This document shows, one piece after another, positions 1 through 17,410 of a stretch of DNA of 24,000 nt. Numbering within the stretch: the stretch's first letter is position 1; each line of letters begins with the position of its first letter. The position numbers were made by a program, and so were the translations under genes. This DNA is from an uncultured Rhodocyclaceae bacterium (GTDB taxonomy: Bacteria > Pseudomonadota > Gammaproteobacteria > Burkholderiales > Rhodocyclaceae): contig CAZSHO010000001.1 in the NCBI GenBank assembly GCA_964607005.1, forward strand, positions 98,457 through 122,456, given 5' to 3'. Under the pieces are notes generated by a model that did not search any database, was not told the origin of the DNA, and saw only the letters and a program-made list of their open reading frames with translations.

Positions 1-1
1 A

Positions 2-703
2 CAGGCGGCCCTCAATCAACCTGTCGGTGACTTCACGCTGCTCGATCGTCGTGAAAATCCGGTACGGCTGGCCGATTATCGCGGCAAGCCCCTGCTGGTG
101 AGCTTCATCTACACGGGCTGCTTCGAAGTCTGCCCGACCACCACACGCAACCTGCAGAAAGTCGTCACCGATACCGTTGCCGTCCTCGGCACCAACCGAT
201 TTAATGTGATCAGCATCGGCTTCAACCAGCCTTTCGATTCACCAGCAGCCATGAAGGCCTTTGCCAGCCAGAACGGCATCGTTTTCCCGAACTGGGAATT
301 TCTCAGCCCTGCACCCGCCATCGTCAACAAACTGACACAAAATTTCGGCTTCAGTTATGTGCAGAATCCCTCCGGCTTCGACCACATCGTGCAGGTCACG
401 CTGGTGGATGCACAAGGGAAAATCTATCGACAAATCTATGGCGAGAAGCTGACATCCGACCAGCTGGTCGAACCAATGAAGCAGCTGATTGCCGGCGCAC
501 CGGTCGCGCAGAGCGGGGCCGTTGCCGACCTGTTCGACCGGGTGCGCATCCTCTGCTCGCGATACGATCCGAAAACCGGGGAATATCGTGTCAGCTACGG
601 GCTGGTTTTCGAAATTCTCGGCTTTCTCACCTTTCTCGGCTACATCGGCTGGTTTCTCTGGCAGGAGCTGCGCCAGCGCAGGTTCACGAATCCCGGCAAG
701 TAG
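2..703 (+). CDS. SCO1/SenC-family copper chaperone / thioredoxin-fold protein (5' end cut by window edge)
   Basis: The frame stays open back to position 2 (QAALNQPVGDFTLLDRRENPVRLADYRGKPLLVSFIYTGCFEVCPTTT). It has the SCO-type CxxxC motif (CFEVCP) and a downstream His (GFDHIVQV). The GTG at 98 in the ORF track is internal. A C-terminal hydrophobic helix is present (VFEILGFLTFLGYIGWFLW). Confidence 0.8.
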   Translation, partial: QAALNQPVGDFTLLDRRENPVRLADYRGKPLLVSFIYTGCFEVCPTTTRNLQKVVTDTVAVLGTNRFNVISIGFNQPFDSPAAMKAFASQNGIVFPNWEFLSPAPAIVNKLTQNFGFSYVQNPSGFDHIVQVTLVDAQGKIYRQIYGEKLTSDQLVEPMKQLIAGAPVAQSGAVADLFDRVRILCSRYDPKTGEYRVSYGLVFEILGFLTFLGYIGWFLWQELRQRRFTNPGK

Positions 704-774: not shown

Positions 775-2352
775 ATGGTGCATCCGCAGCCACGTCACTC
801 CTGGCATCCTCTCGCCGTGATTCAGCGCCTGGAAAGCTTCCTGGACCGCTTCTTCGGTGCCCGGGGCAATCCGCTGCGGCATCTGGGAGCACTGGGTTTT
901 TATTTTCTCTGGATCGCGCTCGCCAGCGGCATTTATCTGTTCATCGTTCTGGATACGGGCATCGAGAAAATTCACGCCTCGATCGAGTACTACACGCATG
1001 AGCAATGGTGGCTGGGCGGCATCATCCGCAGCCTGCACCGCTACGCCGCCGACGGGCTCGTCCTGGTCATGATCCTGCATGTCCTGCGCGAGCTCGCTCA
1101 TGGCCGTTTTCGCGGTTTTCGCAGCTTTACCTGGCTCACCGGAGTTCCGGTTATCTGGCTGGTCTATGCCTCCGGAATTGGCGGTTACTGGCTGGTCTGG
1201 GATCAGCTCGGGCTGTTCTCCGCGCTCGCCAGTGCCGAATGGTTCGACTGGCTGCCGTTCCTGCATAATGTGACAACACGCAATTTTCTGCCGGGCGTGC
1301 TGAATGACCGGTTTTTCACCTTGCTGCTGTTTCTTCATATCGGCATCCCGCTGCTCTTGCTGCTCGCCTTGTGGGCACATATCCAGCGCATTGCCCGGGC
1401 CGACGTCTTTCCTTCGCGCAGTCTCGCCGGCGGCACGCTCGCCATGCTGCTGGTGCTCGCCCTGATCAAACCCACTGTCTCGCACGGCAAGGCGGAGCTG
1501 TCACAACTGCCCTCCGTGCTGCAGATCGACTGGTACTACCTGTTCATTCACCCGTTGATGTACCTGACCTCCCCGGCCTTCCTCTGGTTTCTGTCTGCCG
1601 TGCTCACGCTGCTCCTGCTCGCCCTGCCCTTGCTGTCACCAGGGCGTGCGCAGGCACCGGTGGCGATCGTCGATCCGGACTATTGCAATGGTTGCCGTCG
1701 CTGCTTCGACGACTGCCCTTACAGCGCCATCACCCTGCGGCCCCATCCGGATCGGCCGGGGCACGAACTGGCCGGTGTGGATGCCCATCTATGCGCTTCC
1801 TGCGGCATCTGTGCAGGTGCCTGTCCTTCGTCGACGCCTTTTCGCAGCACTGACGCACTCGTCACCGGTATCGACATGCCCTCGCAACCGATCGGCGCAC
1901 TGCGCGCCGAAATGGAACGCAAGCTTGCCGCGCTCGAGGGTCCGGTTAAAATCCTGGTGTTCGGTTGTGATTGCGCCGTTGCGACCGCGCCTCTCGAAGA
2001 CGCGCAAACCGCAGTGCTGAGCCTTTTGTGTGTTGGCCTTTTACCGCCAAGCTTCATCGAATACGCCCTGCGCAGCGGTGCCGGCGGCGTGCTGGTGACC
2101 GGTTGCCGGGAAGGCAGTTGTGCCTACCGGCTGGGCAACCGCTGGATGGAAGAGCGCCTGGACGGCCAGCGCGAACCGCACCTGCGCCGCACCACCCCTC
2201 TTGATCGCCTGCGTGTCGTTCTCGCCGATGCTCATGAAATGAGCCAGCTCAAGGCGCAGCTCGATAAATTCCGCGAAGATTTGAATGTTTTGGACAAGAA
2301 TGGACAACACCCCCACACCACGCCCCCCAAAAGGATGACTCGACATGGTTAG
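775..2352 (+). CDS. Fusion protein: diheme cytochrome b (bc1/b6 N-terminal type) + 2x[4Fe-4S] ferredoxin + MvhD/FlpD-like iron-sulfur domain
   Basis: The N-terminal membrane domain has two His pairs spaced 14 residues apart, as in cytochrome b helices B and D (RSLHRYAADGLVLVMILHVL; FLHIGIPLLLLLALWAHIQ). Two CxxCxxCxxxCP motifs follow (CNGCRRCFDDCP, CASCGICAGACP). The C-terminus carries an MvhD-like signature (ILVFGCDC...LLCVGLLPPSFIEYALRSGAGGVLVTGCREGSCAYRLGN). No obvious SD precedes the ATG at 775, so the start is uncertain. Confidence 0.8.
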   Translation: MVHPQPRHSWHPLAVIQRLESFLDRFFGARGNPLRHLGALGFYFLWIALASGIYLFIVLDTGIEKIHASIEYYTHEQWWLGGIIRSLHRYAADGLVLVMILHVLRELAHGRFRGFRSFTWLTGVPVIWLVYASGIGGYWLVWDQLGLFSALASAEWFDWLPFLHNVTTRNFLPGVLNDRFFTLLLFLHIGIPLLLLLALWAHIQRIARADVFPSRSLAGGTLAMLLVLALIKPTVSHGKAELSQLPSVLQIDWYYLFIHPLMYLTSPAFLWFLSAVLTLLLLALPLLSPGRAQAPVAIVDPDYCNGCRRCFDDCPYSAITLRPHPDRPGHELAGVDAHLCASCGICAGACPSSTPFRSTDALVTGIDMPSQPIGALRAEMERKLAALEGPVKILVFGCDCAVATAPLEDAQTAVLSLLCVGLLPPSFIEYALRSGAGGVLVTGCREGSCAYRLGNRWMEERLDGQREPHLRRTTPLDRLRVVLADAHEMSQLKAQLDKFREDLNVLDKNGQHPHTTPPKRMTRHG

Positions 2353-2863
2353 CAAATCTCCCGTCAATCCGGCCGTACTGATCGGCCAGGTGCTGTTTTA
2401 CGGCCTGTTTGCCGTCATCATCGGCTATTTTTCAACGTCTCCCACCTTCACGCACATCGATCCTGGCCTGTCGTTGATCAAGCTCTCCTTCAGTACCCAG
2501 GCCGAGCCGGTGGGCGAGTGCCGCAACCGGACACCGGAAGAGCTCGCCAAGCTCGCACCGAATATGCGCGCACCGCGTATCTGCCCGCGCGAGCGCTCGC
2601 CGATCAAGGTCAGCATCAGCCTGGACGGCCAGCCGCTGTTCGAAGGCAGTGCACCCCCGGCCGGGCTGTCGAAGGACGGCCCCTCGACGCTCTACGAACG
2701 CTTTGAAGTCTCCGCAGGCAAGCATACGCTCTCGGTCAAGATGAACGATAACGTCAATATTCCCGGCTTCAATCATGTGCGCGAAGAAACGGTTGACCTG
2801 AAACCAGCGCAGATCCTCGTCATCGATCTGCGCAAGGACCGTGGCGGCATCATCTTTGAATGA
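2345..2863 (+). CDS. Small membrane-anchored protein of unknown function (one N-terminal TM helix plus a soluble beta-rich domain)
   Basis: The ATG overlaps the upstream stop by 8 nt (ATGGTTAG). Third codon positions are GC-rich. The N-terminal helix is VLIGQVLFYGLFAVIIGYF. There are two Cys (GECRNR, RICPRE) but no CxxCH and no CuA-type ligand set. Confidence 0.6.
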   Translation: MVSKSPVNPAVLIGQVLFYGLFAVIIGYFSTSPTFTHIDPGLSLIKLSFSTQAEPVGECRNRTPEELAKLAPNMRAPRICPRERSPIKVSISLDGQPLFEGSAPPAGLSKDGPSTLYERFEVSAGKHTLSVKMNDNVNIPGFNHVREETVDLKPAQILVIDLRKDRGGIIFE

Positions 2864-4257
2864 AGGCAAGTCTTGAATGCGGGCCGGAGGCGGCAGGGAC
2901 GGCTTTCCTCCTGACACCTGCTGATGCACGGCTCACCGGCATCGCCCGCGGCTGGCTCTGGCTGGGCCTGCTCGCCCTGATCGGTTCGGGGCTGCTATCG
3001 ATCATCCTTGTCCTCTCGCGCGCGCCACAATTTCAAAAACTCCTGCCGGCCGGAGACTTCTTTCGCACGGCCCTCGTGGTGCACGTTGATCTCTCCGTTC
3101 TCGTCTGGTTCATCTCGCTGGGCGGCATCCTGTGGACGCTGTCGGGCACGGTGCGCGCACTCTGGCTCAATCGCGCGGCCCTGCTCATCGCCGGACTGGG
3201 CACCCTGCTGATAACCCTCTCGCCATTCATCGGCCACGGCACGCCGATCATGGCCAATTACATTCCGGTACTCGACAATCCCGCCTTCCTCTGGGGATTG
3301 GTGATTTTCGGCTCAGGGGCGGTCGTGCTGGTACTGCGCAGCCTGATCGCCATGCCCGGCTGCTCCATGCCCCGAAGCGGCGAGGAAGCCCTGCAGGCCG
3401 GGCTCTCGCTCGGTCTGCTGCCCGCCGTCATCGCCATCATGGCCTTTGTCTGGTCTTGGCTGACGCAACCGGCCGGTCTGGGTGACAAAGCCTTTTACGA
3501 AATCCTTTTCTGGGGCGGCGGCCACGCACTGCAATTCATCTGGACGCTGTTCATGCTGGTCGCCTGGCTATGGCTGGCAAGTGCCTGTGGCGCACGCGTG
3601 CCGATGAGTCCGCGCATTGCTCTGCTCTGCTTTTTCCTGGCGGTGATCGGTGCGCTGGCAATCCCGGTTGCCTATCTCCTCTGGCCTGCCCATGCCGTCG
3701 AACACCGCAACCTGCTCACCTTTGCCATGGGGCTGGGCGGCGGGCTGCCGATCCTGCCCGTGGCGCTGGCCGTGCTGCTGGCCGTGCCTCCCGCACGTTC
3801 CATCGACGATGATGCGCGTCCCCTGCGTGCTGCCCTGTATGCCTCACTCGCCCTGTTCTGTTTCGGCGGTCTCATCGCGTTCACCATTTCGGGCAGCAAC
3901 GTCAAGATTCCTGCCCACTATCACGGCTGCATCGTCGGTGTCACCCTGGCGCTGATGGGGCTGGTGTATCACCTGCTGCCACACCTCGGTTATGCCCGGC
4001 CGGCACGCAAGGCCGCCACCTTTTCTTCGTATTGCTATGCCGCGGGACAGGCCCTGCACATCGGCGGCCTGATGTGGTCGGGCGGTTACGGCGTGCAGCG
4101 CAAGGTGGCCGGTGCTGAACAGGCCCTGAGGAGCACCAGCGAAATCGTCGCCATGGGCATCATGGGCATGGGCGGGCTCGTCGCCATCATCGGCGGACTG
4201 GTATTCGTCGTGGTTGTCCTGCTCGCCATGCGAAACAGACGGAGGAATGTCCCGTGA
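2860..4257 (+). CDS. Divergent heme-copper oxidase / NO-reductase superfamily subunit I-like protein (12 predicted TM)
   Basis: It shares an ATGA overlap with the upstream gene. There are twelve hydrophobic segments. His residues sit at HCO ligand-equivalent positions: H75 (VVHVDLSVLVWF, helix II), H222 (LFWGGGHALQF, compare aa3 WFFGHPEVY, helix VI), H278/H282 (WPAHAVEH, helix VII region) and H353/H355 (PAHYHGCIV, compare AHFHYV, helix X). The spacing H75-H222-H278-H353 (147/56/75) resembles cbb3 CcoN. Confidence 0.7.
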   Translation: MKASLECGPEAAGTAFLLTPADARLTGIARGWLWLGLLALIGSGLLSIILVLSRAPQFQKLLPAGDFFRTALVVHVDLSVLVWFISLGGILWTLSGTVRALWLNRAALLIAGLGTLLITLSPFIGHGTPIMANYIPVLDNPAFLWGLVIFGSGAVVLVLRSLIAMPGCSMPRSGEEALQAGLSLGLLPAVIAIMAFVWSWLTQPAGLGDKAFYEILFWGGGHALQFIWTLFMLVAWLWLASACGARVPMSPRIALLCFFLAVIGALAIPVAYLLWPAHAVEHRNLLTFAMGLGGGLPILPVALAVLLAVPPARSIDDDARPLRAALYASLALFCFGGLIAFTISGSNVKIPAHYHGCIVGVTLALMGLVYHLLPHLGYARPARKAATFSSYCYAAGQALHIGGLMWSGGYGVQRKVAGAEQALRSTSEIVAMGIMGMGGLVAIIGGLVFVVVVLLAMRNRRRNVP

Positions 4258-4442
4258 ACGATCCGCAAGGCCTTGCCGAAACCGTACGACGCGCCTGTAT
4301 CGAGGTAGCGCTGGAAGCCTACGAAGATGCCCAGGTGCGCGGCCTGTGCCACGAAGGCGCATGGGAAGTGGCCATCGGCGCCCTGCGCTCCCTCGACCTC
4401 AAAGCCCTCCTCGCCGCAGCCGGGAAAGAACAACCCGATTAA
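4254..4442 (+). CDS. Small 62-aa conserved-looking hypothetical protein, translationally coupled to the HCO-like gene
   Basis: Its GTG start overlaps the upstream TGA (GTGA). Third codon positions are GC-rich, like the neighbouring genes. It contains a Cys/His pair (RACIE...GLCHEGAW). No family was recognised. Confidence 0.5.
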   Translation: MNDPQGLAETVRRACIEVALEAYEDAQVRGLCHEGAWEVAIGALRSLDLKALLAAAGKEQPD

Positions 4443-5590
4443 TCGGCACAGCCCTGCCGTCCGCTCAGTGCCGTCAGCGCCCACAGCACCTGTACGAAAA
4501 ACACCGCCAGCCCGGCGAATGCCAGCCAGAAACCGGCAGTCCAGCCGAATGCCACCAGCCCGCCTCCGAGGAGAAAAGTCAGTCCTCGCAAGACGGCGTG
4601 ACGTCCCAGCCGCAGGCGTACCCCACGATGCCAATCGCCCTGCATGCCGGGCCGCAGCCAGACCGGCAACAACTGGCTGGCCGCACCGGTGACCAGCGGT
4701 AGCAAAAACATCAGCAGAAACCCGGGAATCGCCTCGCGTGCAGGCAACACGCCTGCCGCATGCAGCACGCCGAGGAGAAGCAGCAATCCCCATCCGCTCA
4801 AGGCAAGAGCAAGCAGCGGTGCGGCACCATGCCGGCAGAGCACTTGCATGCGAAGCGAGCGCAGCCAGCCACGCCCGAGCAAAAAAAACGGCACGAGCAA
4901 AAGCAACGCACCTGCATACGCCAGAGGCGGCCACCAAGCGGCACCCGCAGCCACCAGCAGTGCACCGGCAAGGCTGGGCATACGCATGCGCCGCAGCCAG
5001 TGCGCGGCCTGTGGATCAGGCTTCGCGGCCGCCGTCGGCAGCAGCACGGCAAGCGTGCCCAGGGCGGCGAGTCCGACAAACCCGAGCGTGTTCAGATGCA
5101 GATGGAACAGCCGCAAGGCTGTGCGTTGTTGCGGCCAGAGCGGCAGGATCAGCGCCGCCAACAAGGCCAGGACGAGACACAGCACGGCGGCCAGATACCA
5201 GTACAGACCGGGGTGTGGCGCCCCCAGGGTGGCGCGAGCTCGCCGCACGATCCACGCCGCCATGATCAGGGCGGCGACGAGCACCAGCGTGGCAGCGGCA
5301 TGGACAAGCGGGTTGAAAAATACCGGATGGTGAAAGGCAGCCACCACCAGCACGCCGGCGGCCAGCGGCAGCCACGGCAGATAGCACAGTGGCGTGGCCG
5401 GTGCCGCACTGCGCGTGAGCACCGGCACGAAATACAATATGGCGGCAAAGATCAGCGGCAGAACACCAATGGCAAAAGCCACGTGCGCGGCCAGCGCCGG
5501 GCTGGTGTACCCGGTGACGAAAAGGCCCAGCGCCACGGCAAACGCTGCACCGGCGACGGCCACCAGAAACGGCAGGATGCTGCCTCGCAC
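4439..5590 (-). CDS. Polytopic integral membrane protein (about 10-12 TM), possibly a distant NnrS-like protein
   Basis: 383 aa, very hydrophobic, with a GTG start. The motif HLHLNTLGFVGLAALGTLAVLLPT resembles the NnrS HAHEMLFGF..GF..T..P core but is not canonical. It lies directly downstream of a DUF2249 gene, a common NnrS neighbour. Confidence 0.45.
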   Translation of the reverse strand: MRGSILPFLVAVAGAAFAVALGLFVTGYTSPALAAHVAFAIGVLPLIFAAILYFVPVLTRSAAPATPLCYLPWLPLAAGVLVVAAFHHPVFFNPLVHAAATLVLVAALIMAAWIVRRARATLGAPHPGLYWYLAAVLCLVLALLAALILPLWPQQRTALRLFHLHLNTLGFVGLAALGTLAVLLPTAAAKPDPQAAHWLRRMRMPSLAGALLVAAGAAWWPPLAYAGALLLLVPFFLLGRGWLRSLRMQVLCRHGAAPLLALALSGWGLLLLLGVLHAAGVLPAREAIPGFLLMFLLPLVTGAASQLLPVWLRPGMQGDWHRGVRLRLGRHAVLRGLTFLLGGGLVAFGWTAGFWLAFAGLAVFFVQVLWALTALSGRQGCAD

Positions 5591-5616
5591 GCGGCCCGGG
5601 CTTGAAGAGGGAACGA

Positions 5617-5877
5617 TTATTTCTTCTTGGCGAAATCGATGACGACCTCGCCCGGCACCCGCTGCACGTAGCTGATCTCGATCTTGTCACCGAAGCGCGA
5701 CATCAGTTGTTCGAGCAGGGGCAACGGATCGTGATCGTTGCAAAAGCGCATCGTCTCGCCGGGGAACAGGGCTTCGAAAGCTCCGAAGATCGCCGCATGG
5801 CGAAAGCGCTTGGCAATGCCACGCGCATCGAAGGGATAGAGCTTGTCATCCTGCAGGTGCAGATGGGGATCGGCCAT
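5617..5877 (-). CDS. DUF2249-domain protein
   Basis: 86 aa with the DUF2249-like pattern FDARGIAKRFRHAAIFGAFEALFPGETMRFCNDHDPLPLLEQL. A strong SD (AAGGAG) precedes the ATG, and an FNR/DNR box lies upstream. Confidence 0.75.
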   Translation of the reverse strand: MADPHLHLQDDKLYPFDARGIAKRFRHAAIFGAFEALFPGETMRFCNDHDPLPLLEQLMSRFGDKIEISYVQRVPGEVVIDFAKKK

Positions 5878-5942
5878 GTTTTTCTCCTTGGGCTGTTTTC
5901 AGTGCGAAAATGGAATTGTCCGTGCCACATCCCATGACGGCC

Positions 5943-5956
5943 TTGATGCAAATCAT
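5943..5956. promoter_or_regulatory. FNR/DNR/NnrR-type binding box TTGATgcaaATCAT in a divergent promoter region
   Basis: It matches the TTGAT-N4-ATCAA consensus at 9 of 10 positions. The centre is about 72 nt from the DUF2249 ATG and about 94 nt from the 6044 ATG. -10-like hexamers lie about 22 nt away on both sides (TATGTT toward the plus gene, GACAAT toward the minus gene). Confidence 0.6.
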
Positions 5957-6043
5957 GGAAGCCGGATCATTAAGGTCTTATGTTTCCTCATAAATTAAAA
6001 GGTTATCCTTCCCGACAGATACTCCCCGACCTGGCAGACCTCC

Positions 6044-7972
6044 ATGCTCAAGCTGACCCACAAAACCCTGCAATGGTTTTTCATGCGTGTCGAAGGCCTT
6101 TTCAACCTGGCTTTTGGCGAAAAACTCAATCCGCTCTATCACCTGGGCACCATCACCTTCTGGCAGTTCTGGCTGGTCGCCGTGAGCGGCCTGTACCTCT
6201 TCGTCTTCACCGACACCGGCGTCAAGGATGCCTACCTGTCTGTCGAACGCATCACCCATGTCCAGTGGTGGGCCGGCGGCATCCTGCGCAGCATCCACCG
6301 CTACGCCTCGGACGGCATGATCCTCACCATGTTGCTGCACATGGTGCGCCATTTCGCCTTTGACCGCTATCGCGGTTTTCGCTGGTTCTCCTGGATGACC
6401 GGTGTCGTGCTGATCTGGCTGGTGTACATCTCGGGCATCAATGGCTTCATGCTGGTGTGGGACCGTCTTGCGCAATTCGTGACCGTCACCACCGCCGAAA
6501 TGTTCGACTGGTTTCCGATGTTTCATGGCGTGGTCATCCGCAACTTCATTTTCGAGGGTGCGGTCAATGACCGTCTGTTCACCCTGTTCGCCTTCATTCA
6601 TCTGGGCGCGCCCCTGCTGGTGCTGATGGTGATGTGGATCCACGTCCAGCGCGTGCCGCGCGCCAACATCAATCCGCCACGGACGATCGCCCTCTGGGTG
6701 ACGCTCACCTTCGTCGTGCTCTCCCTCGTCAAGCCGGTCGTCAGCCAGGGGCCGGCCAACCTCTCGGTCGAAGTGGGCAAGCTCGATTTCGACTGGTTCC
6801 TGCTGCCGGTCTTTGCCCTCGTCTATGAATGGCCGATGAAATACATCTGGGGGCTGCTCTTCGGTCTCACCGGTCTGCTGTATCTGTTTCCCTGGCTGCC
6901 GCCCAAACGGCGTGGCGCAGCCAAGGCCGAACTGGACATCAGCGTGCATCCGGACAACAAAACGGTGCAGGCGCACTTTGGCGAAACCATCCTCGATGCC
7001 GGCCTGCGCAACGACATCAATCTGCCCTACGAATGCCGCAATGGCGGCTGCGGCCTGTGCAAGTGCTCGGTACTGCAAGGCGAGGTCGATGCCGGTCTCT
7101 ACCAGCCGGAAGCACTCAGCGAAGCCGAGCGGGCGATGGGCAAGGTGCTGATGTGCTGCGCCACACCGCTCACCGACATCGAAATCGAATACGAACCGCA
7201 GTTCGCCCTGGTGCGAGCCCCCATCAAGGAATACGCCGGCACCGTCGACAAGATGGAAAAACTCACCCATGACGTCATGGGAGTGACGATCCGGCTGCCG
7301 CAAGGCGAGCGCATCGCCTTCAGCGCCGGTCAGTACATCAACATCATCCTCGAGGATGGTGCGCGGCGTGCCTTCTCGTTTGCCAGCGCACCGCACAACG
7401 CCGAACACATCGAGCTGCAGATCCGCCTCGTGCCGGGCGGACGCTTCACGACACAGGTCTTCGAGACGATGAAGGTGGGTGATCCGGTCCGCTTCGAAGG
7501 CCCGCTCGGCGACTTTGTCCTGCGCGAATCGAGCCGGCCGATCATCTTCGTCGCCGGCGCCACCGGCTTCGCACCGGTGAAGAGCATGGTCGAGGATGCC
7601 TTCCACCGCGGGCTGAAACGGCCGATCCGTCTCTACTGGGGCATCCGCCATCCGCAGGACCTCTACATGGCCGACCTGCCGGAAAAATGGCAGCAGGAAC
7701 ACGGCACTTTCAAGTTCATCCCGGTCGTCTCGGAACCTGCGGACGGGGATGGCTGGAACGGGCGCACCGGCCTCGTGCATGAGGCCATCCTGCAGGATTT
7801 CCCCAGTCTGGCCGGCAATGAAATCTACGCCTGCGGCTCGGTGCGCATGGTTGAGGCAATCTTTCCCCAACTGAAGAACCATGGGGCGGAAGAAGGCATG
7901 TGCTTCTCGGACGCTTTCACCCTCTCGGCACGCTCCATGGCGCTGCAGGTACCGGAGGACCCGGCGGGCTGA
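6044..7972 (+). CDS. Fusion protein: diheme cytochrome b + plant-type [2Fe-2S] ferredoxin + FNR-family FAD/NAD(P)H oxidoreductase
   Basis: The N-terminal domain is paralogous to 775-1500, with the same two His pairs 14 residues apart (RSIHRYASDGMILTMLLHMV; FIHLGAPLLVLMVMWIHVQ). It has the C-x4-C-x2-C...C motif (YECRNGGCGLCKC...VLMCCATP). FNR-family motifs are present: RAFSFAS, GPLGDF, FVAGATGFAPVKSM and YACGS. Confidence 0.85.
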   Translation: MLKLTHKTLQWFFMRVEGLFNLAFGEKLNPLYHLGTITFWQFWLVAVSGLYLFVFTDTGVKDAYLSVERITHVQWWAGGILRSIHRYASDGMILTMLLHMVRHFAFDRYRGFRWFSWMTGVVLIWLVYISGINGFMLVWDRLAQFVTVTTAEMFDWFPMFHGVVIRNFIFEGAVNDRLFTLFAFIHLGAPLLVLMVMWIHVQRVPRANINPPRTIALWVTLTFVVLSLVKPVVSQGPANLSVEVGKLDFDWFLLPVFALVYEWPMKYIWGLLFGLTGLLYLFPWLPPKRRGAAKAELDISVHPDNKTVQAHFGETILDAGLRNDINLPYECRNGGCGLCKCSVLQGEVDAGLYQPEALSEAERAMGKVLMCCATPLTDIEIEYEPQFALVRAPIKEYAGTVDKMEKLTHDVMGVTIRLPQGERIAFSAGQYINIILEDGARRAFSFASAPHNAEHIELQIRLVPGGRFTTQVFETMKVGDPVRFEGPLGDFVLRESSRPIIFVAGATGFAPVKSMVEDAFHRGLKRPIRLYWGIRHPQDLYMADLPEKWQQEHGTFKFIPVVSEPADGDGWNGRTGLVHEAILQDFPSLAGNEIYACGSVRMVEAIFPQLKNHGAEEGMCFSDAFTLSARSMALQVPEDPAG

Positions 7973-8041: not shown

Positions 8042-9289
8042 TCAGTCCGGCAGCGCGATCCTGCCGTCCTTGCTGAGGAGATAATCCCTGAAGACGTGTT
8101 CGGCACTGAGCAGCTGATAGCTGCCATCGGCCAGTTTGTGCGAGGTGTCCTTCAGGCGATACGTGGTTGCACCGCAAGTCCAGCAGTCAAAGTTGCGCAT
8201 GTGGGTGCACAGGCAGGTTTTGTCCTTGACGCTGATCGTCTTGGCGCCAGGGTTTTTTGCCAGCTCCCGATAATAGGCGTCGATATAGTCGCAATGCCCC
8301 TTGGCATCGAGCAGATAGCCATAGGCCTCACAATTGGGCCGGATGCCGGCGCCGATCGCCGGGCTGCTCTTCAGCATGCGCATCGGATATCCGGTCGGCG
8401 AAATGCCGTTGACCTCGATGTCCTCTTCGTTTGCCTTGAAGTATTCCTGCTTGACATCGTCCGGCAGACCGCATTCGTGCGTCACGGTGAAGCGCGTGGC
8501 CACCTGGATGGCCGCGGCACCGGCTTCGAGATACTCGACGGCGTCGCTGCCAGTGAAGATACCCCCGGCCGGAATCACCGGAATGTCGAGTTTTTCCTCG
8601 CGCAGCCACTGCATGATTTCGGCAACGATGGCGCGCAGATCGTATTTCATCCAGTCGTCGAGACCGAAACCGAGGTGCCCTCCGGCCAGCGGTCCTTCCA
8701 CCACGACATAATCGGGCAAGCGACCGGTGCGTGCACTTTTCTTGATGAAGATTTTCAGCGCGCGCAAGGATGAGACGATGATGCCCAGTTTCACATCCGC
8801 AAAGCGCGGGTGCTCTTCGATCAGATCGAAGGTTCCCATGTGCAGGCCGGCCGCCAGTGTGATGCCGTCGATGCCGGCATCCATGGCGGAAGTCAGACGG
8901 ATGCGCAGCGTCTCCTTGGGCGCATTCATCGTCAGCTTTTCCATGCAGTTGATGAAGATCAGCCCGTCGCCGCGCTTGGCATCCATGGTGCGCCCGACAT
9001 GCAGGCGCGTCGCCTCGGCGACGTCGCTCAGATCGAACTGGACTTCGGACTTGTCCGGGTTGGCGACATTGTATTTGTAGCGCTTTTGCTTGGCACTGAC
9101 GAATTTGGTGTCGTAGCGGCGATCGGTCACCGTGCGGGTCATCGCATCCGAGATATGGCCGATGCCGCCCAGGCGGGCCGCCACCAGGGCCAGATCGGTC
9201 GCCGAGATGTCCACGCCCATGCCGCCAATCATGATCGGCACCAGTTCGCGCCCGCTCAGACGCAGACGAAAATCATCCACACTTTTCAT
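8042..9289 (-). CDS. Nitronate monooxygenase (2-nitropropane dioxygenase, NPD)-family FMN oxidoreductase with a Cys-rich C-terminal extension
   Basis: It has the N-terminal IMIGGMGVDIS...LGGIGHIS motif, plus VVVEGPLAGGHLGF and IPVIPAGGIFTGSD, which are typical of the NMO/FabK-like TIM-barrel family. The C-terminal roughly 90 aa carry 7 Cys. Confidence 0.7.
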   Translation of the reverse strand: MKSVDDFRLRLSGRELVPIMIGGMGVDISATDLALVAARLGGIGHISDAMTRTVTDRRYDTKFVSAKQKRYKYNVANPDKSEVQFDLSDVAEATRLHVGRTMDAKRGDGLIFINCMEKLTMNAPKETLRIRLTSAMDAGIDGITLAAGLHMGTFDLIEEHPRFADVKLGIIVSSLRALKIFIKKSARTGRLPDYVVVEGPLAGGHLGFGLDDWMKYDLRAIVAEIMQWLREEKLDIPVIPAGGIFTGSDAVEYLEAGAAAIQVATRFTVTHECGLPDDVKQEYFKANEEDIEVNGISPTGYPMRMLKSSPAIGAGIRPNCEAYGYLLDAKGHCDYIDAYYRELAKNPGAKTISVKDKTCLCTHMRNFDCWTCGATTYRLKDTSHKLADGSYQLLSAEHVFRDYLLSKDGRIALPD

Positions 9290-9619
9290 TGAAGCCTCTG
9301 GAATACAGCCAGCGAGGATCGCGCCGGCGCGAAAGGGGAAGCGAAAGCGTCATTCTACGCCATGCGCGTCACCCGTATCCGGGAAATCGTGCCGCCGGAG
9401 ACGGCAGGGCAGCACCGATCAGCACCCCGCCGGGCAAGTGGCCGGCCGGCAAAAAGTCAGTTCCCGCGATACGGCGCTCGATGCATGCAACGCGCCGGCC
9501 GGGCAACAGCAGGAAAGCAGCACTTTGCCAGTGAACCGCCATAATCCGGACAGATTCCGGCCGCAGCCGGCCATTTGTGCTGCATAGAGTGGCCGCTTCT
9601 GCACACACCGGGAGGTACC

Positions 9620-10966
9620 ATGCAAAAAACATTGCTGCTCAAGGCCGCGCTGGTCGCCCTGATTCTGCTGCTGCTCAAGGGGCTACTGCTATTTTTTGGC
9701 AACGTCGTGGACGAACGCCAGGGACGCCAGCAGGCAGTTATCCAGGAGATCGCCGCCAGCCAGTATGGCGCGCAGGTGTTCGCCGGCCCGATCCTGTCCG
9801 TGCCCTATATCGAGGAATACGACAAAACCATCACGGTCGGGGGCGTCAAGAAGATCGAGAAGCGGCGCGTCGAGCGGACATTGCGTCTTTTCCCCGACAA
9901 TCTGGACGTGCGCGGTGAAGCCACCCTCAGCCGCAAGTCGCGTGGCCTGTTCAAGGCCCTCCTCTTCGACTGGCAGGCCAGCGTGAGCGGCGAATTCCTG
10001 TTGCAGGCCGTGTCTGTCCCGCGCAGCACGCCGCAGTCGAACATCATCTGGGGGCAGCCGGTGTTGAGTCTGACGCTGGGCGACCCGCGCGGCCTCTTCG
10101 GTACCCCCACCCTGCAATGGGACGGCGCACCGCTCGCCTTCGCGCGCGGCAGCGGCCTGGCCCATGGCGGCAGCGGCATCCACGCCCTGCCCGGCAAGTT
10201 CGACCCGACGCAGACGCAACGCCATGCCTTCACCCTCACGCTTGGCCTGCGCGGCAGTGATTCCCTCTCCTTCGTGCCGCTGGCCAGCCGCAACCACATT
10301 GCACTCACCTCACCCTGGCCGCATCCGAGCTTCGGCGGCCAGTTCCTGCCCGACCCGCAATCGCAGCGCGTCACACAGAAGGGTTTCGTCGCCGAATGGC
10401 AGATCAGCGCCCTGGCCAGCCGCGCCCAGCAGCAGTTCGCCGCGTACCTCGAGCAGCCGGCCGAGTGCGGCAACCCTCCCTGCACCGAGCGGGCGACGGT
10501 CAGCTTCATCGAGCCGATCAACATCTACATGCTCTCCGAGCGCGCCATCAAGTACGGCCTGCTGTTCATCCTGCTCACTTTCGCCGGCTTCCTGCTCTTC
10601 GAACTGCTCAAGCACCTGCCCATCCACCCGGCACAGTATTTCCTCATCGGCCTTGCCATGGCGGTCTTTTTCCTGCTGCTGATCGCCCTGTCGGAGCATA
10701 TCGCCTTCGTTCTGGCCTACCTGGTTGCCGCCGCCGCCTGCATTCTGCTGATCAGCATCTACCTGAGTGCCGTGCTGCGCAGCGTCCGGCGCGGTGCGGC
10801 ATTTGGCGCACTGCTCACGCTGCTCTACGGAGTGTTGTACGGGTTGCTGGCCTCAGAGGACAATGCACTGCTCCTCGGCGCACTGCTCGTCTTTGCCATG
10901 ATCGCCCTGATCATGCTCGCCACGCGCAAGGTTGACTGGTACACGCTCGATGCGACGAAGCGCTGA
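9620..10966 (+). CDS. creD: Inner-membrane protein CreD (cell envelope integrity protein)
   Basis: The ATG at 9620 is preceded by GGAGG. The ORF-track start at 9575 adds 15 residues with no RBS. The protein is 448 aa, with one N-terminal TM, a large periplasmic domain and a C-terminal cluster of TM helices (LSERAIKYGLLFILLTFAGFLLFE), matching CreD architecture. Confidence 0.7.
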   Translation: MQKTLLLKAALVALILLLLKGLLLFFGNVVDERQGRQQAVIQEIAASQYGAQVFAGPILSVPYIEEYDKTITVGGVKKIEKRRVERTLRLFPDNLDVRGEATLSRKSRGLFKALLFDWQASVSGEFLLQAVSVPRSTPQSNIIWGQPVLSLTLGDPRGLFGTPTLQWDGAPLAFARGSGLAHGGSGIHALPGKFDPTQTQRHAFTLTLGLRGSDSLSFVPLASRNHIALTSPWPHPSFGGQFLPDPQSQRVTQKGFVAEWQISALASRAQQQFAAYLEQPAECGNPPCTERATVSFIEPINIYMLSERAIKYGLLFILLTFAGFLLFELLKHLPIHPAQYFLIGLAMAVFFLLLIALSEHIAFVLAYLVAAAACILLISIYLSAVLRSVRRGAAFGALLTLLYGVLYGLLASEDNALLLGALLVFAMIALIMLATRKVDWYTLDATKR

Positions 10967-11060: not shown

Positions 11061-12656
11061 TCAGTGGCTGGTGCCCTCCGAACGGGTGATCTTGTTCCAG
11101 ACATTGTATTTACCGACCGGTTTGCACGCCGGGATGCGCTTCACTTCCTTCAGCGTCGCCGCATCAAAGACGATCAGCGCACCTTCCTGTTCCATCAGGC
11201 TCGCCAGCGCATAGCGGCCGTCCTTGGTGAATTCGACGTGCGCAAGTGTCTTGCCCGGTTCCGGACGCAGATGGGCGACAACTTCCAGCGTCTGCTTGTC
11301 GATCACCGTCAGGGTGTCCTTGTGTTCGCGGCTCATCATCGAATCGGTCCAGGCATAGCGGGAGTTCTCATGACTACGCATGAAAAATCCCGGACCGGGT
11401 GTCGGAATCTGCCGCACCGTCTTCCAGGTCTTCATGTCAATGACGCTGATGACGCCTTCTTTCAGATTCGGTGTCGCCATGACGCGGCGGCCCTGCCAGT
11501 CCCAGGTGATGCCCGAACCCAGATGCGGCATACCGGGCAGATCGAGTGTGGCGATGCTGCGCCGGACATCCAGATTCACCACCTGTCCCTTGCCGGCGCC
11601 CTGGCTCGCACCCATCACTTCCTTGTAATCCTGGGTGAAGAAGAAATCATCGAGAAAATCATCGACAATCGAACGGCGCGGATTGAGGAAACCCGGCACG
11701 AAAGCACCTTCACGGTATCGATAGTCATGGATATAGCCGGCGGGAATGTCCGGCGCCGTCCTGTCATAGCTGACTTCCCAGACTTCCTTGACGTCCTTGA
11801 GCGCGGCGACAAAGCTCTTGCGCGGCGCGGCATCATAGACGGCCGAGACGCGTGAGCTGCGCTTGCCTTCCTCCTCGCGCACCTCGAGAATTTTCACCGG
11901 ATTGAGATCGGCATCGAGGATTACCAGGGTATGCGGCAGATAATTGGCAACCGCCACATACTGGCCATCGCCGGAGACGGCGGCATTGCGCGTGTTGATG
12001 CCGGCGCGCACTTCGGCAACCATCTTCAGGTTCCACAAGTCGTACTTGGAGATCCAGCCATCGCGCGAGGCAAAGAAGACATAGCGCCCATCCGGTGTGA
12101 ATTTCGGCCCGCCATGCAGGGCAAAGCGCGAAGCAAAACGTGCAATCGGCTCGAGCTTGTCGCCGTCGAGAATCGTCACGTGGTGATCACCGCCTTCGAC
12201 CACGACGAACAGATTCATCGGATCGGCCGAAAATACCGGTCTGGCGGGAAGGCTGCCCGGTGCATGATGGATCACGTGAGAGGCGCGAATCTGCGCTTCA
12301 TCCCACTGCGGCATCGGCACCGGCGTGTAGAGGTAATCGGCGAGCGCCTGGATCTGCCCGGGCGTGAGCGTCTGCCGAAATGCCGGCATCTGCACGTTCG
12401 GACGACTGTCGCGGATCACCTTGAGCGCTTCGGGCTTACGCAGGCGCGCAAGATTCTCCGGCAGCAGGGCCGGCCCCATGCGGCCAAAACGATCGGCGCC
12501 ATGACACTCGGCGCAGTGCTGGCGATACAGTTCGGGCACCGTCTCGGCAGCGGTTGCAGAAGCATTCACCACAGAGAGGCAGAGACACAGGAAGAAAAGA
12601 AGATACCTGGCTGCCCTCTGTGCCGGTGTGTCTCCATGATGAAACAGGGTTTTCAT
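11061..12656 (-). CDS. nirN: NirN, cytochrome c + cd1-like beta-propeller protein (dihydro-heme d1 dehydrogenase)
   Basis: It starts at MKTLFHH, with an ATGA overlap onto the nirJ stop. It has a signal-like N-terminus, a CAECHG heme c motif, a cd1 propeller, and the conserved C-terminus GKYNVWNKITRSEGTSH. The ORF-track N-terminal 81 aa lie inside nirJ in another frame. Confidence 0.9.
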   Translation of the reverse strand: MKTLFHHGDTPAQRAARYLLFFLCLCLSVVNASATAAETVPELYRQHCAECHGADRFGRMGPALLPENLARLRKPEALKVIRDSRPNVQMPAFRQTLTPGQIQALADYLYTPVPMPQWDEAQIRASHVIHHAPGSLPARPVFSADPMNLFVVVEGGDHHVTILDGDKLEPIARFASRFALHGGPKFTPDGRYVFFASRDGWISKYDLWNLKMVAEVRAGINTRNAAVSGDGQYVAVANYLPHTLVILDADLNPVKILEVREEEGKRSSRVSAVYDAAPRKSFVAALKDVKEVWEVSYDRTAPDIPAGYIHDYRYREGAFVPGFLNPRRSIVDDFLDDFFFTQDYKEVMGASQGAGKGQVVNLDVRRSIATLDLPGMPHLGSGITWDWQGRRVMATPNLKEGVISVIDMKTWKTVRQIPTPGPGFFMRSHENSRYAWTDSMMSREHKDTLTVIDKQTLEVVAHLRPEPGKTLAHVEFTKDGRYALASLMEQEGALIVFDAATLKEVKRIPACKPVGKYNVWNKITRSEGTSH

Positions 12657-13795
12657 TTCAGCCCGATCTCCTCGTCGGTGAGATAGCAGCCCGGGTCTTC
12701 CGCCCAGGGGTTGCCCGTCAGTTGCAACGCACGCACGCGCGTGTTGCCATCGCAGATGTCGAAGTGGGCGCAGCCGGCGCAGCGCCCGCCGATCCGGCGC
12801 GGCTTGTTCTTCAGCCCGGCCATGATCGGGTCGGTGGTGTCTGGCCAGATTGCGGAGAAGGGCCGTTCGCGCACATTGCCCAGGGTGTGGTGCCACCACA
12901 TCGTGTCGGGGTGGACATTGCCGAGGTTATCGATGTTGGCGACATTCACACCGGAGGAATTGCCGCCCCACTGGACGAGTCTGGCGCGGATATGGGCGGC
13001 ACGCTCGGGAAAGTGCTTTTCCACCCAGTGGAGGAAATACACGCCGTCGGCATCGTTGTTGCCCGTGGTGAATTCCTTCTTCAGGCCGCGCTGCATATAG
13101 CTCCAGCAGGTGTCAAAGAGCAGGTCCATCGCCTGGCGCGTCATCTGGTGATGGGCATCATCCTTGCGATTCTTGTTGCCGCGGCCAGCATAGTTCAGAT
13201 GCGAGAAGTAGAAGCGGTCGATACCCTCGTCCTCGACCAGTTGCAGCAGCTGCGGCAGGTCCTGGACGTTGTCCCGCGTCAGGGTGAAGCGCACGCCGAT
13301 CTTCAGATCAAGCTCCCGGCACAGGCGGATGCCGGCGAGCGAGCGCTCGAAGGCGCCCTGCAGGCGACGGAACTGGTCATGCGTCTGGCGGATGCCGTCA
13401 AGGCTCACCCCCACGTAGTCAAAGTCAGTTGCGGCGATACGGCGGATATTGGATTGATCGATAAGAGTGCCGTTGGTCGACAGCCCGACATAGAAGCCCA
13501 TCTCCTTGGCGCGCCCGGCAATCTCGAAAATGTCCGGGCGCAGCAACGGCTCGCCGCCGGAGAGGATCAGCACCGGCACACGAAAGCGCTTGAGATCCTC
13601 CATCACCGTGAAGACTTCCTGCAGATTCAGTTCGCCGGCAAACTCCTTGTCGGCGGAAATCGAATAGCAGTGCTTGCAGGTGAGGTTGCAGCGGCGGATC
13701 AGGTTCCAGATAACCACCGGTCCCGGAGGATTGCGCTTCTCGCCCGGCGGCGTGGGATGGGCAATCTCTTCCATGTATTGGGAAATTCTGAACAT
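12653..13795 (-). CDS. nirJ: NirJ, radical-SAM heme d1 biosynthesis protein
   Basis: It has the CNLTCKHCY radical-SAM CxxxCxxC motif and a C-terminal Cys cluster (GGRCAGCAHFDICDGNTRVRA). The preferred start is ATG 13795 (MFRISQYM), with GGAGA 7 nt upstream. The ORF track uses the TTG at 13801. Confidence 0.9.
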   Translation of the reverse strand: MFRISQYMEEIAHPTPPGEKRNPPGPVVIWNLIRRCNLTCKHCYSISADKEFAGELNLQEVFTVMEDLKRFRVPVLILSGGEPLLRPDIFEIAGRAKEMGFYVGLSTNGTLIDQSNIRRIAATDFDYVGVSLDGIRQTHDQFRRLQGAFERSLAGIRLCRELDLKIGVRFTLTRDNVQDLPQLLQLVEDEGIDRFYFSHLNYAGRGNKNRKDDAHHQMTRQAMDLLFDTCWSYMQRGLKKEFTTGNNDADGVYFLHWVEKHFPERAAHIRARLVQWGGNSSGVNVANIDNLGNVHPDTMWWHHTLGNVRERPFSAIWPDTTDPIMAGLKNKPRRIGGRCAGCAHFDICDGNTRVRALQLTGNPWAEDPGCYLTDEEIGLK

Positions 13796-13910
13796 GCTCA
13801 ATTCTCCGCCAGGCCGCGCCGGGGAGGGCTGCGGTCATCAGCATGAAAGTCGCACAGCGACTGAACCGTTGTCACCCCTTTCCTCGGGGAAGGGGACGGA
13901 GGACAGATCG

Positions 13911-14408
13911 TCATATTCCGATGCGCAGTCCGGTTTTCTTCAGGATCCGGCTGCTGTAGAGAACATCATGGGTGCGGCACGCCGATCCGAGCAGGCCGGC
14001 GATTTCCAGTACCTGTCCCTCAACGTCCTCCCGGCTGCGGCCATGCACCATGGCGAACAGATTGTAGGGCCACAATGGCAAGGCGCGCGGGCGGTGATAG
14101 CAATGTGTGACGAAAGGCAGACGCCCTACCGCCGCGCCGAGTGTATCGATGCGTTCATCCTCGACATCCCAGACGCTCATGCCGTTGGCAACATAGCCGA
14201 GCGCATAGTGGTTGGGTACCGCGCCGATGCGGCGGATGATGCCCTCTTCAAGCATGCGCGCCAGACGCAGTTTGACTTCTTCCGCGTCGATACCGAGACG
14301 ATCCGCCAGTGCCGCATAGGGGCGTGGCACCAGCGGCAAACCGCCTTGCGTCTCCAGGATCAGGCGGCGATCAAGCCCGTCGAGCGGTTGCACCATGCCT
14401 GCCTTCAT
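13911..14408 (-). CDS. nirH: NirH, AsnC/Lrp-like siroheme decarboxylase subunit
   Basis: The start MKAGMVQPLDGLDRRLILETQGGLPL has an ATGA overlap with the nirG stop. It has Lrp/AsnC-like NirD/L/G/H family motifs (VPNHYALGY, VTHCYHRPR..WPYNLFAMVHG). Confidence 0.85.
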   Translation of the reverse strand: MKAGMVQPLDGLDRRLILETQGGLPLVPRPYAALADRLGIDAEEVKLRLARMLEEGIIRRIGAVPNHYALGYVANGMSVWDVEDERIDTLGAAVGRLPFVTHCYHRPRALPLWPYNLFAMVHGRSREDVEGQVLEIAGLLGSACRTHDVLYSSRILKKTGLRIGI

Positions 14409-14848
14409 GCCGCCAGCTTCATCCCGACAAAATATTCCTTCAACTTCGGAAAGGCATGAACCTTCAAACCCGTAGCGCATTCGATCTTTTCAATCGCTGC
14501 CGTAATCCCTGCGGGTGCCTCGGTGGCGAGCACGAACCACATGTTGAGCGTGTGCTCGCGCCGATAGTTGTGGGCGACTTCGGGCAGCGCATTGACGCAG
14601 GCAGCGATCCGGTCATAGTCGGCCTCCGGCACGACCAGTGCCGCCAGTACAAAGGCACCGCCCATGCGCTCGACCTGGAACATCGGGCCGAAACGCGTCA
14701 GCGTTCTGGTCTCCAGCAGCCGTTGCAGGCGCATGATCAGGACCTCTGCGGTCAGGCCCAATGACTCGGCAACTTCGCGGTAGGGCTCATCGCTGAGCGG
14801 AAAGCCGCCCTGCACGGCATTGATGATGGCGCGATCCGTCTCATCCAT
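14405..14848 (-). CDS. nirG: NirG, AsnC/Lrp-like siroheme decarboxylase subunit
   Basis: MDETDRAIINAVQGGFPLSDEPY...EVAHNYRREHTLNMWFVLA. It overlaps the nirDL stop by 8 nt and sits between nirDL and nirH. Confidence 0.85.
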   Translation of the reverse strand: MDETDRAIINAVQGGFPLSDEPYREVAESLGLTAEVLIMRLQRLLETRTLTRFGPMFQVERMGGAFVLAALVVPEADYDRIAACVNALPEVAHNYRREHTLNMWFVLATEAPAGITAAIEKIECATGLKVHAFPKLKEYFVGMKLAA

Positions 14849-15833
14849 GTGCGGCTTCGACCTGCGGGATGTAGAGGGCGCCGCGCTGCTTGAAGCGGCG
14901 GCGCGAAAAAAGCACTTCGTAACGTACTGCTTCGAGCCCCAATCGGTCGCGCAGACGCACCACCGCAGCCTCGACCTCGGTGCGGCTACGCCCGTGAATC
15001 ATGCAATAGAGATTGTAGGGCCACTGTGGCAGATGGCGGCGACGCTTGTAGCACAGGGTTACTTCGGGTTCGGCGGCGAACAGGCGGCCGATGCGCTCGG
15101 CCTCGTGGTCGGGCAGGTCCCAGACAACCATGGCGTTGGAGACGAAGCCCAGTTCGTGATGCCGCACGATGATGCCAAAGCGCTTGATGAGACCCTCGCC
15201 ACGCCAGGCCTTGATCATGGCAATCACTGTGGATTCATCCAGACCGGCCTGTTCGGCAAGGCGAGCGAAAGGACGTGACACCAGCTCAAGACCGTATTGC
15301 AGCACGCCAAGCAGGCGCTCCTCATCGAAAGTCAGTGTTCGCAACACGGCGCCATCGATGCGCCGTGCGGCATAGGGCGACTTGCAGACACCCGCCAGAT
15401 CGAATCCGAGGTCGATGTAAAACTCGTATTCGAGCGGCAGGGAGAGTACCGGATAGCCCAGCTCGCGGCCGATATCGGCAAGCGCCCCGTCCAGATGTGC
15501 CTGGTCGGGTGCAGTGACGACGAACCACAGGTTGTAATGATGCTCGCGCTCGTAATTGTGATTGACTTCGGGCCGGGCACTCACTTTGCGCGCCAGCTCG
15601 ACAAGCTGCGGCGGCGGCACGGCCACCGCCGCCAGGGTGCTTGCGCCGATGCGGCGCGGTGCGAGCACGGCGCCCACACGGCTCACCACACCGCAGGCCT
15701 GCAGCCGGCGCAATGCCGCCAGGACCGTCTCCTCATCGATGCACAGCCGCCAGGCCAGTTCGGCGAATGGCTCCGAATCGAGCGGGAAGCCGCGCTGGAA
15801 TTCATTGACCAGGCGAAAATCAAGCGAGTCCAT
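14841..15833 (-). CDS. nirDL: NirD-NirL fusion (NirDL), siroheme decarboxylase
   Basis: 330 aa made of two tandem AsnC/Lrp-like modules (FRLVNEFQRGFPL...EVNHNYEREHHYNLWFV and LLGVLQYGLELVSRPF...TLCYKRRRHLPQWPYNLYCMIHG). Confidence 0.85.
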   Translation of the reverse strand: MDSLDFRLVNEFQRGFPLDSEPFAELAWRLCIDEETVLAALRRLQACGVVSRVGAVLAPRRIGASTLAAVAVPPPQLVELARKVSARPEVNHNYEREHHYNLWFVVTAPDQAHLDGALADIGRELGYPVLSLPLEYEFYIDLGFDLAGVCKSPYAARRIDGAVLRTLTFDEERLLGVLQYGLELVSRPFARLAEQAGLDESTVIAMIKAWRGEGLIKRFGIIVRHHELGFVSNAMVVWDLPDHEAERIGRLFAAEPEVTLCYKRRRHLPQWPYNLYCMIHGRSRTEVEAAVVRLRDRLGLEAVRYEVLFSRRRFKQRGALYIPQVEAAHG

Positions 15834-15842
15834 GCGCTTTCC

Positions 15843-17359: not shown

Positions 17360-17410
17360 CGTTCCGCTCAGGATGCCTGTAATTACCCCGGGAAGCTTTG
17401 ACTTTTCTCA

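Follow-up and report, generated by a model that had tools for sequence, protein, structure and literature searches.

A gene for a 465-residue membrane protein resembling subunit I of the haem-copper oxidoreductases (HCOs) lies at 2860..4257 in a 24,000-nucleotide stretch of DNA from an uncultured Rhodocyclaceae bacterium (contig CAZSHO010000001.1, positions 98,457 to 122,456). This whole stretch is called the window, and coordinates refer to it, on the forward strand unless stated otherwise. The HCO-like protein is predicted to retain the ligands of two haems and to lack two of the three histidines of the classical CuB/FeB site. The reading favoured overall, which has about as much for it as against it, is that of an HCO subunit-I paralogue without a CuB site that would act as a two-haem accessory factor for HCOs containing haem a. 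Confidence is high in the structural side of this reading, and its functional side is put forward tentatively, at somewhat less than an even chance.

The assignment of the open reading frame (ORF) to subunit I, with 12 predicted transmembrane helices, draws on the ORF call, Pfam, AlphaFold2 (AF2) and Foldseek. The Pfam family COX1 matches residues 28-432 of the protein, essentially its full length, with 45.4 bits for a cut-off of 34.8. The AF2 model, built on 148 homologues, consists of 12 long helices (pLDDT 89.8, pTM 0.91), and Foldseek superposes it on subunit I of aa3, ba3, bo3 and cbb3 enzymes with TM-scores of 0.63-0.75 at 12-20% identity. The subunit-I fold of the HCO superfamily is recovered by all three approaches, which bears out the HCO-like identity proposed in an earlier note on this DNA. 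Together, the confident 12-helix model and the Foldseek matches point to a genuine but very divergent homologue of HCO subunit I. Sequence searches of the PDB with the single protein and with a 24-sequence profile matched no HCO chain, an NCBIfam scan returned no meaningful family, and NorB was not among the 50 best structural matches found by Foldseek.

Individual residues were placed with hhalign, by comparing a profile of 128 family representatives with a profile of 62 eNOR-type subunit I sequences and Thermus ba3 (Prob 100%, E 7.8e-48). The ba3 residues serve as reference with the following roles: H72 as low-spin haem ligand, H233 and H282/H283 as CuB ligands, Y237 as the cross-link tyrosine, H384/H386 as haem ligands and R449-R450 as the haem-propionate-binding pair. 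H75 in helix II (3082..3084) aligns with H72 and is a predicted ligand of the low-spin haem. The H353-Y-H355 motif of helix X (PAHYHG, 3916..3924, with codons 3916-3918 and 3922-3924 for the two histidines) aligns with H384/H386, and R414-K415 (4099..4104), the predicted propionate pair, with R449-R450. The histidine ligands that the superfamily carries on helices II and X are accordingly all found in the alignment: H353 would be the proximal ligand of the high-spin haem, and H75 and H355 would form a bis-histidine low-spin haem site.

The distal side of the high-spin haem is where the protein departs from its relatives. Helix VI reads EILFWGGGHALQFIW, and its motif W218-GGG-H222-AL-Q225-F226 (3511..3537) pairs W218 with ba3 W229, H222 (3523-3525) with H233, Q225 with V236 and F226 (3535-3537) with Y237. 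The first CuB-type histidine is retained, as the earlier note had seen, and it is followed by an invariant glutamine; the same note was also right that phenylalanine occupies the position of the cross-link tyrosine, a residue of the A, B and C oxygen reductases (four residues after the helix VI histidine, or on helix VII in the C family) that this protein lacks. In helix VII, the canonical pair of adjacent histidines that binds copper or iron (ba3 H282/H283) is absent. Its counterparts are A271-Y272 (3670..3675), a placement for which the alignment confidence of hhalign is moderate around residues 271-272 and which agrees with the end of helix VII at residue 274 in the AF2 model and with the spacing, as 49 residues separate the helix VI histidine from the first histidine of the pair in ba3 and 222 + 49 gives 271. 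This spacing is 49-51 in aa3, cbb3 and cNOR enzymes. A weaker match to an A-type profile (aa3 genes of related loci, Prob 70%) leaves the histidine pair in a gap directly after Y272. Although Y272 stands at the second histidine position, this differs from the location of the cross-link tyrosine in the C family.

The earlier note had correctly reported the absence of the adjacent pair, but had taken WPAHAVEH (W275-H282, 3682..3705) as its replacement, and this part does not hold. According to hhalign and AlphaFold, the segment forms the loop between helices VII and VIII and the first turn of helix VIII: helix VII covers residues 251-274, residues 275-279 are coil and helix VIII begins at 280. 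H278 (3691-3693) falls in the loop on the periplasmic (P-) side, and E281 (3700-3702) and H282 (3703-3705) fall at the start of helix VIII, outside the position of the histidine pair; their partners in ba3 are I290, T293 and W294. An alternative placement of the bovine sequence HHMFTVGM on R283-N284-L-L-T287-F-A-M290 was rejected, since the hhalign result, the helix ends in the AF2 model and the ba3 spacing of 49 residues all point to 271-272 as the site of the pair. Owing to the loss of the helix VII pair, which leaves H222 alone, the classical three-histidine CuB/FeB site is predicted not to exist in this protein. Instead, H222 would face the distal pocket of the high-spin haem together with Q225, which is invariant, and Y272, which is conserved in most members. 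Haem binding and the absence of a non-haem metal are both deduced from sequence, and the earlier note's view that the active-site metal cannot be called from sequence is shared here.

Conservation was followed in three samples, namely the 128 family representatives, which stand for 50%-identity clusters and share 30-45% identity with the query, a set of 171 genomic or metagenomic loci, and the 148 homologues. The predicted haem ligands are kept almost throughout (H75 in 99-100%, H353 and H355 in 98-100%), as are W218, H222 and Q225 (99-100%), and R414-K415 is kept in 96-97% of the representatives. Among the 171 loci, Y272 occurs in 165 (96%) and both Q225 and H400 in 100%. Positions that are near-invariant family-wide comprise H75, N133-Y134-x-P136, E214, W218, G221, H222, Q225, T287, M290, H353-Y-H355 and R414-K415, with H400 at 84%. 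The position of F226 holds phenylalanine in 77% and tyrosine in 10% of the representatives. None of the 128 has a histidine at the first position of the helix VII pair, and only ∼7% have one at the second. The family is large, with 1,665 clusters at 50% identity for E<1e-3, 1,280 for E<1e-10 and 758 for E<1e-30, and more than 595 matches among GTDB species genomes.

The residues of WPAHAVEH behave quite differently. H278 is kept in 2% of the representatives, 7% of the loci and 11% of the homologues; more than 89% of homologues have another residue there (A, T, S, V, D or G). Even in 24 homologues at 57-82% identity it is already Y, A, S or T, in a context where V280-E281-H282-R283 is invariant, and these replacements are seen at 57-68% identity. 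H282 is kept in 93% of the loci (159/171) and 95% of the homologues but in 29% of the representatives, where phenylalanine (27%) and tyrosine (21%) together account for 48%. E281 is found in 113 of the 171 loci and in 48% of the representatives. A role of H282 as essential metal ligand throughout the family would be incompatible with its replacement by phenylalanine, and the 48% of representatives with Phe or Tyr argue against any family-wide metal ligand at this position. On this pattern, H278 is an incidental, lineage-specific residue, and E281-H282 mark at most a P-side feature conserved in a subfamily. The H-x3-H spacing carries little weight by itself: by chance, about 0.2 such pairs are expected in a protein with 10 histidines among 465 residues. 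A second such pair, H371/H375 (YHLLPH, 3970-3984), is present in helix X and is poorly conserved (H371 in 16-51%, H375 in 3-11%); it shows that H-x3-H pairs occur in this protein with no functional significance.

These data bear directly on the explanation suggested by the earlier note, in which H222, H278 and H282 together with E281 would hold iron or copper in a modified binuclear centre and the protein would be an alternative NO reductase. The residues do exist, since the strings LFWGGGHALQF, WPAHAVEH and AHYHG are all present in the ORF; E281-H282 is conserved in the subfamily, the cross-link tyrosine is missing as in NO reductases, and the locus is one of denitrification. However, H278 is rare and already replaced among close homologues, H282 is phenylalanine or tyrosine in nearly half of the wide sample, and both lie away from A271-Y272, the true counterparts of the histidine pair. 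The analogy drawn with the glutamate of cNOR fails as well. In cNOR and qNOR the FeB ligand set is three histidines and a glutamate, which in Pseudomonas aeruginosa NorB comes four residues after the helix VI histidine (H207/E211), and in the HCO-like protein that position is F226. The note had itself named absence of these residues from homologues, or placement of H278/H282 outside the active site, as grounds for abandoning the proposal, and this is largely what was found. The explanation is close to refuted on its own terms and is considered very improbable.

The protein shares with cNOR and qNOR the HCO fold, the missing cross-link tyrosine and the denitrification context; it differs from them in having no histidine pair, a phenylalanine four residues after the helix VI histidine, and its glutamate on helix VIII. 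Likeness is greatest with ba3 and the eNOR type, which give the best profile match, ba3 also having the highest identity among the structural matches (18-20%). The histidines of helices II, VI and X, the Arg/Lys pair and the 49-residue spacing are all held in common. In contrast to ba3 and eNOR, the HCO-like protein has A271-Y272 in place of the histidine pair, is not partnered by a CuA-containing subunit II, and scores 45 bits against COX1 where the canonical eNOR-type subunit reaches 209.

Several new HCO families have recently been described, namely eNOR, sNOR, gNOR, nNOR, NOD and a putative N2O reductase (Murali et al. 2024, PMC11214002). Among them, gNOR has aspartate in place of one histidine and was presented as the earliest example of an HCO family in which any active-site histidine is replaced (PMC11214002). 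The HCO-like family resembles gNOR in that a metal-binding histidine of the active site is replaced and the cross-link tyrosine is absent. Unlike gNOR, which changes a single histidine and has a subunit II of cupredoxin fold, it is without two of the three, at positions that carry Ala/Ile and Tyr. Membership of eNOR, sNOR, gNOR or nNOR implies a cupredoxin subunit II together with two or three histidines at the metal site; here two histidines are missing and the small partner protein p172, described below, is not a cupredoxin. Membership of the putative HCO-type N2O reductase family, which is closely related to cNOR, was judged unlikely on indirect grounds: a best profile match to the B family and eNOR, the absence of NorB from the 50 best structural matches, and more than 595 matches for this family as against 293 listed for that one. 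The HCO-like family is not among the new families of Murali et al. 2024 (PMC11214002).

A related gene has been noticed in a recent preprint on Ferrigenium straubiae (Becker et al. bioRxiv 2026, doi 10.64898/2026.01.22.701106), in which a COX1-like gene (IMG 2878407321, K02274) is named ‘eNOR scaffold protein’ with its function given as unknown. It follows genes for eNOR II, eNOR I, haem o synthase and sco1 and lies among two cytochrome b/Fe-S fusion genes, an operon content called ‘a very common observation’; the scaffold protein was detected in the proteome, and the cytochrome b fusions were proposed to form a redox supercomplex and to act as a quinol:NAD+ oxidoreductase (Becker et al. 2026). 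The preprint gives no rationale for the label, no analysis of the active site and no mention of a link with ctaA or aa3 oxidases outside eNOR operons. The Ferrigenium operon has the same architecture as the one analysed here, and annotation together with synteny suggests that both genes belong to the same family: a COX1-like gene in an eNOR II/eNOR I/ctaB/sco1 operon with cytochrome b/Fe-S fusions recurs in a set of 89 loci and in many metagenome loci. A literature search for a characterized relative, or for such a gene described beside ctaA, yielded nothing beyond this preprint. The family has thus been noticed by specialists but neither analysed nor characterized.

Gene neighbourhoods across the family extend well beyond eNOR operons. 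In the sample of 171 loci, 129 lie in clusters with eNOR, SCO, cytochrome b and p172 genes, 12 have ctaA alone detected nearby, and 9 stand beside assembly genes of aa3 oxidases (cox). Within the metagenome-based set, ctaA is found no more than 400 bp from the HCO-like gene in 11 of 84 loci, and is upstream and divergent in nine of these. Three members with 38-43% identity are lone genes transcribed divergently from ctaA, and one further distant member is located 1.4 kb from ctaB-ctaA-surf1-cox3-ctaG-cox1. When 80 metagenome loci were chosen around a distant member, the recurring settings were again eNOR clusters, ctaA pairs and aa3 cox clusters. An adjacent and divergent ctaA is seen in L008, L090, L091, L139, L157, L164 and L165, and a ctaA directly downstream in L025, L026, L039, L041, L050, L054, L084 and L170. 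The common denominator of these contexts is haem-a-containing HCOs and haem o/a synthesis, and neither SCO nor NO reduction as such.

In four aa3-type cox clusters (L105, L111, L160 and L163), the HCO-like gene abuts ctaB. In the fetched stretches of these loci, tblastn detected no ctaA in the interval from ctaB to surf1, which does contain the gene in L009. The HCO-like gene may occupy the slot of ctaA in these clusters, or ctaA may simply be elsewhere in those genomes.

Such associations raise the possibility, considered unlikely here, that the protein works alongside CtaA in making haem A. Acting as oxidant, electron sink, O2-binding partner or first acceptor of haem a, it would allow the conversion of haem o to haem a and its delivery at low O2. 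In eNOR clusters, a fusion of cytochrome b, 2Fe-2S ferredoxin and flavin reductase would supply electrons derived from NAD(P)H, in the manner of Arh1/Yah1 for Cox15. In eukaryotes, electrons reach Cox15 from a ferredoxin (Yah1) and a ferredoxin reductase (Arh1). The idea draws on ctaA being the most persistent neighbour across the family, on the aa3 clusters that have the gene directly beside ctaB and yielded no ctaA within the fetched stretch, and on the need of eNOR for haem a in a host that denitrifies while CtaA depends on O2. Against it, the case consists of genomic association only, nothing in the sequence points to a substrate site for haem o, and in model bacteria CtaA is sufficient by itself to make haem a.

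In the window itself, the gene belongs to an eNOR-type cluster. The left edge cuts a SCO1/SenC gene, of which the 3′ part with the CFEVCP motif is present (1..703; Pfam and relatives' synteny), and what precedes it was read from relatives at 80-83% identity. Close and mid-distance relatives were checked (L001-L007), and upstream they carry ctaA, usually on the opposite strand, a gene of ∼50 amino acids, a CuA subunit II, an HCO subunit I, often ctaB, and SCO. Their CuA subunit II has 179 residues and the motif CNEYCGIGHHTM; their HCO subunit I has 561 residues, matches COX1 with 209 bits and ba3 with 177 bits, and possesses an intact AHH. Helix VI of this canonical subunit reads GHSSQQ, with glutamine at the position of ba3 Y237. 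In L001, where the subunit I gene lies at 5153-6838 and that of subunit II at 4601-5140, GHSSQQ places glutamine at both the third and fourth residue after the histidine, and the CuA subunit II is intact. The HCO-like protein shares the glutamine three residues after the helix VI histidine with its eNOR-type neighbour, and Q225 may have been inherited by both from an ancestor of eNOR/B type. The eNOR-type architecture consists of a CuA subunit and haem a (Murali et al. 2024, PMC11214002).

The earlier note had taken the adjacent SCO gene as an argument for copper in the HCO-like protein. This was a misattribution, as SCO follows a CuA subunit II and a canonical HCO subunit I in every close relative. 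By synteny, the gene is best assigned to the operon of the upstream CuA-containing NO reductase of eNOR type. Serving that enzyme, SCO says nothing about the metal of the 465-residue protein.

Between SCO and the HCO-like gene lie two further genes of the cluster. The first (775..2352) encodes a fusion in which Pfam recognizes an N-terminal cytochrome b domain, followed by two 4Fe-4S clusters and a domain resembling FlpD/MvhD. It is found in 84 of the 89 loci (80 from genomes plus 9 others); eNOR-type subunit I is present in 65 of the 89. The second (2345..2863) encodes p172, a partner of 172 amino acids with one transmembrane helix and a generic β-sandwich (AF2 pLDDT 91.7; 83/89 loci). Its ends overlap the flanking genes by 8 nt (cytochrome b fusion) and 4 nt (HCO-like gene). 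It belongs to no Pfam family, has conserved cysteines C59 and C80, and has ∼2,200 homologues, all labelled hypothetical. Neither Pfam nor a structure search linked p172 to cupredoxins or COX2, no PDB entry matched it significantly, and the proposal that this β-sandwich represents a subunit II without CuA was rejected on these grounds. A second fusion, of cytochrome b, 2Fe-2S ferredoxin and FAD/NAD(P)H reductase (FNR), lies downstream (6044..7972; Pfam, and NCBIfam with BenC as best match, below cut-off) and is found in 79 of the 89 loci, some of them counted through cross-hits to the cytochrome b domain of the first fusion. Both paralogous fusions are conserved in eNOR clusters, and with their cytochrome b of b6/bc1 type they resemble conduits that carry electrons from NAD(P)H or ferredoxin across the membrane.

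This arrangement suits another explanation, judged a real but distinctly lesser possibility, according to which the protein is an enzyme without a CuB site that forms the terminal subunit of a membrane redox module with the cytochrome b/2×4Fe-4S/FlpD fusion and p172, and possibly the cytochrome b/2Fe-2S/FNR fusion. Cytoplasmic NAD(P)H, ferredoxin or quinol would donate electrons, which would travel via the b haems to the low-spin and then the high-spin haem. The substrate at the latter would be NO, O2, nitrite or peroxide, converted in a metal-free His/Gln/Tyr pocket, or at a non-haem metal whose ligands would be H222 and H282 together with E281 or Y272. The overlapping genes speak for it, as do the presence of the cytochrome b fusion and p172 in nearly all of the 89 loci and together again in metagenome loci, the very strong conservation of the pocket, the denitrification island in the window (nirS, nirF, nirDLGH, nirJ, nirN and a NosR-like gene), and the redox supercomplex of cytochrome b fusions proposed in the Ferrigenium preprint. 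Against it stands the existence of distant members as lone genes, without cytochrome b, p172 or subunit II, which implies that the core function would be independent of these partners. Moreover, p172 is not cupredoxin-like, the replacement of H282 by Phe or Tyr in the wide sample tells against the metal variant, and the cluster already encodes a complete eNOR.

In the favoured reading, the protein would be an accessory factor for haem-a-containing HCOs and not a stand-alone NO or O2 reductase. In this bacterium it would serve the NO reductase of eNOR type encoded upstream, and elsewhere aa3 oxidases. Newly made haem o or haem a would be bound in the two conserved haem sites, and be held there or handed over during maturation of the catalytic subunit. 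Such a role would fit the ‘scaffold’ label of the preprint. Several observations weigh against it. The label itself comes without explanation, and haem binding is a prediction. The pocket residues W218, G221, H222, Q225, N133-Y134, T287, M290 and H400 are very strongly conserved, a pattern that fits a site of catalysis or ligand binding better than it fits a passive chaperone. The overlap with the gene for p172, a membrane-anchored β-sandwich, and the association with the cytochrome b/Fe-S fusion in eNOR clusters suggest a redox complex. Finally, H282 and E281 were placed from the alignment and the helix boundaries, and they may still have a role near the haem pocket.

A 62-residue ORF (4254..4442) with a GTG start overlaps the stop codon of the HCO-like gene and is conserved only in the closest Rhodocyclaceae loci (8 loci, 67-77% identity); a 60-residue gene has been called at this position in L001-L003. 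On the reverse strand follow a polytopic membrane protein of 383 amino acids without a Pfam family (4439-5590) and a DUF2249 protein (5617-5877), which lie ahead of the cytochrome b/FNR fusion. Of the 89 loci, 10 and 16 have them, respectively, all from the nearest relatives. Identification of the 383-residue protein as NnrS was rejected, as Pfam lends it no support. The denitrification island comprises an NMO-like flavoprotein (8042-9289, reverse), CreD (9575-10966, forward), nirN, nirJ, nirD/L/G/H-type genes, nirF and nirS (11061-19298, reverse) and a NosR/NirI-like FMN/4Fe-4S membrane protein (19371-21350, reverse), and is followed by queA and tgt (21409-23653). In the Sulfuricaulis-like locus L007, an inserted hemerythrin-domain gene (6868-7260) separates the cytochrome b/Fe-S fusion from p172, and two sulfite/nitrite-reductase-like genes come after the HCO-like gene. 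A scan of the window for promoters and terminators gave counts no higher than in shuffled controls.

Classifications of HCOs treat the three metal-binding histidines as essentially universal, and the family described here, with more than 1,000 clusters at 50% identity, keeps the haem sites without two of them. The PGAP annotation routinely labels its members ‘cbb3-type cytochrome c oxidase subunit I’, which can inflate the counts of oxidases or NO reductases in metagenomic surveys. The consistent linkage to ctaA, ctaB, SCO, eNOR and aa3 assembly genes leads to a testable hypothesis, namely a function in the handling of haem a or in the maturation of haem-a enzymes. This bears on how denitrifiers growing anaerobically mature an NO reductase that depends on haem a, and a partnership with CtaA, if true, would help to explain that maturation.

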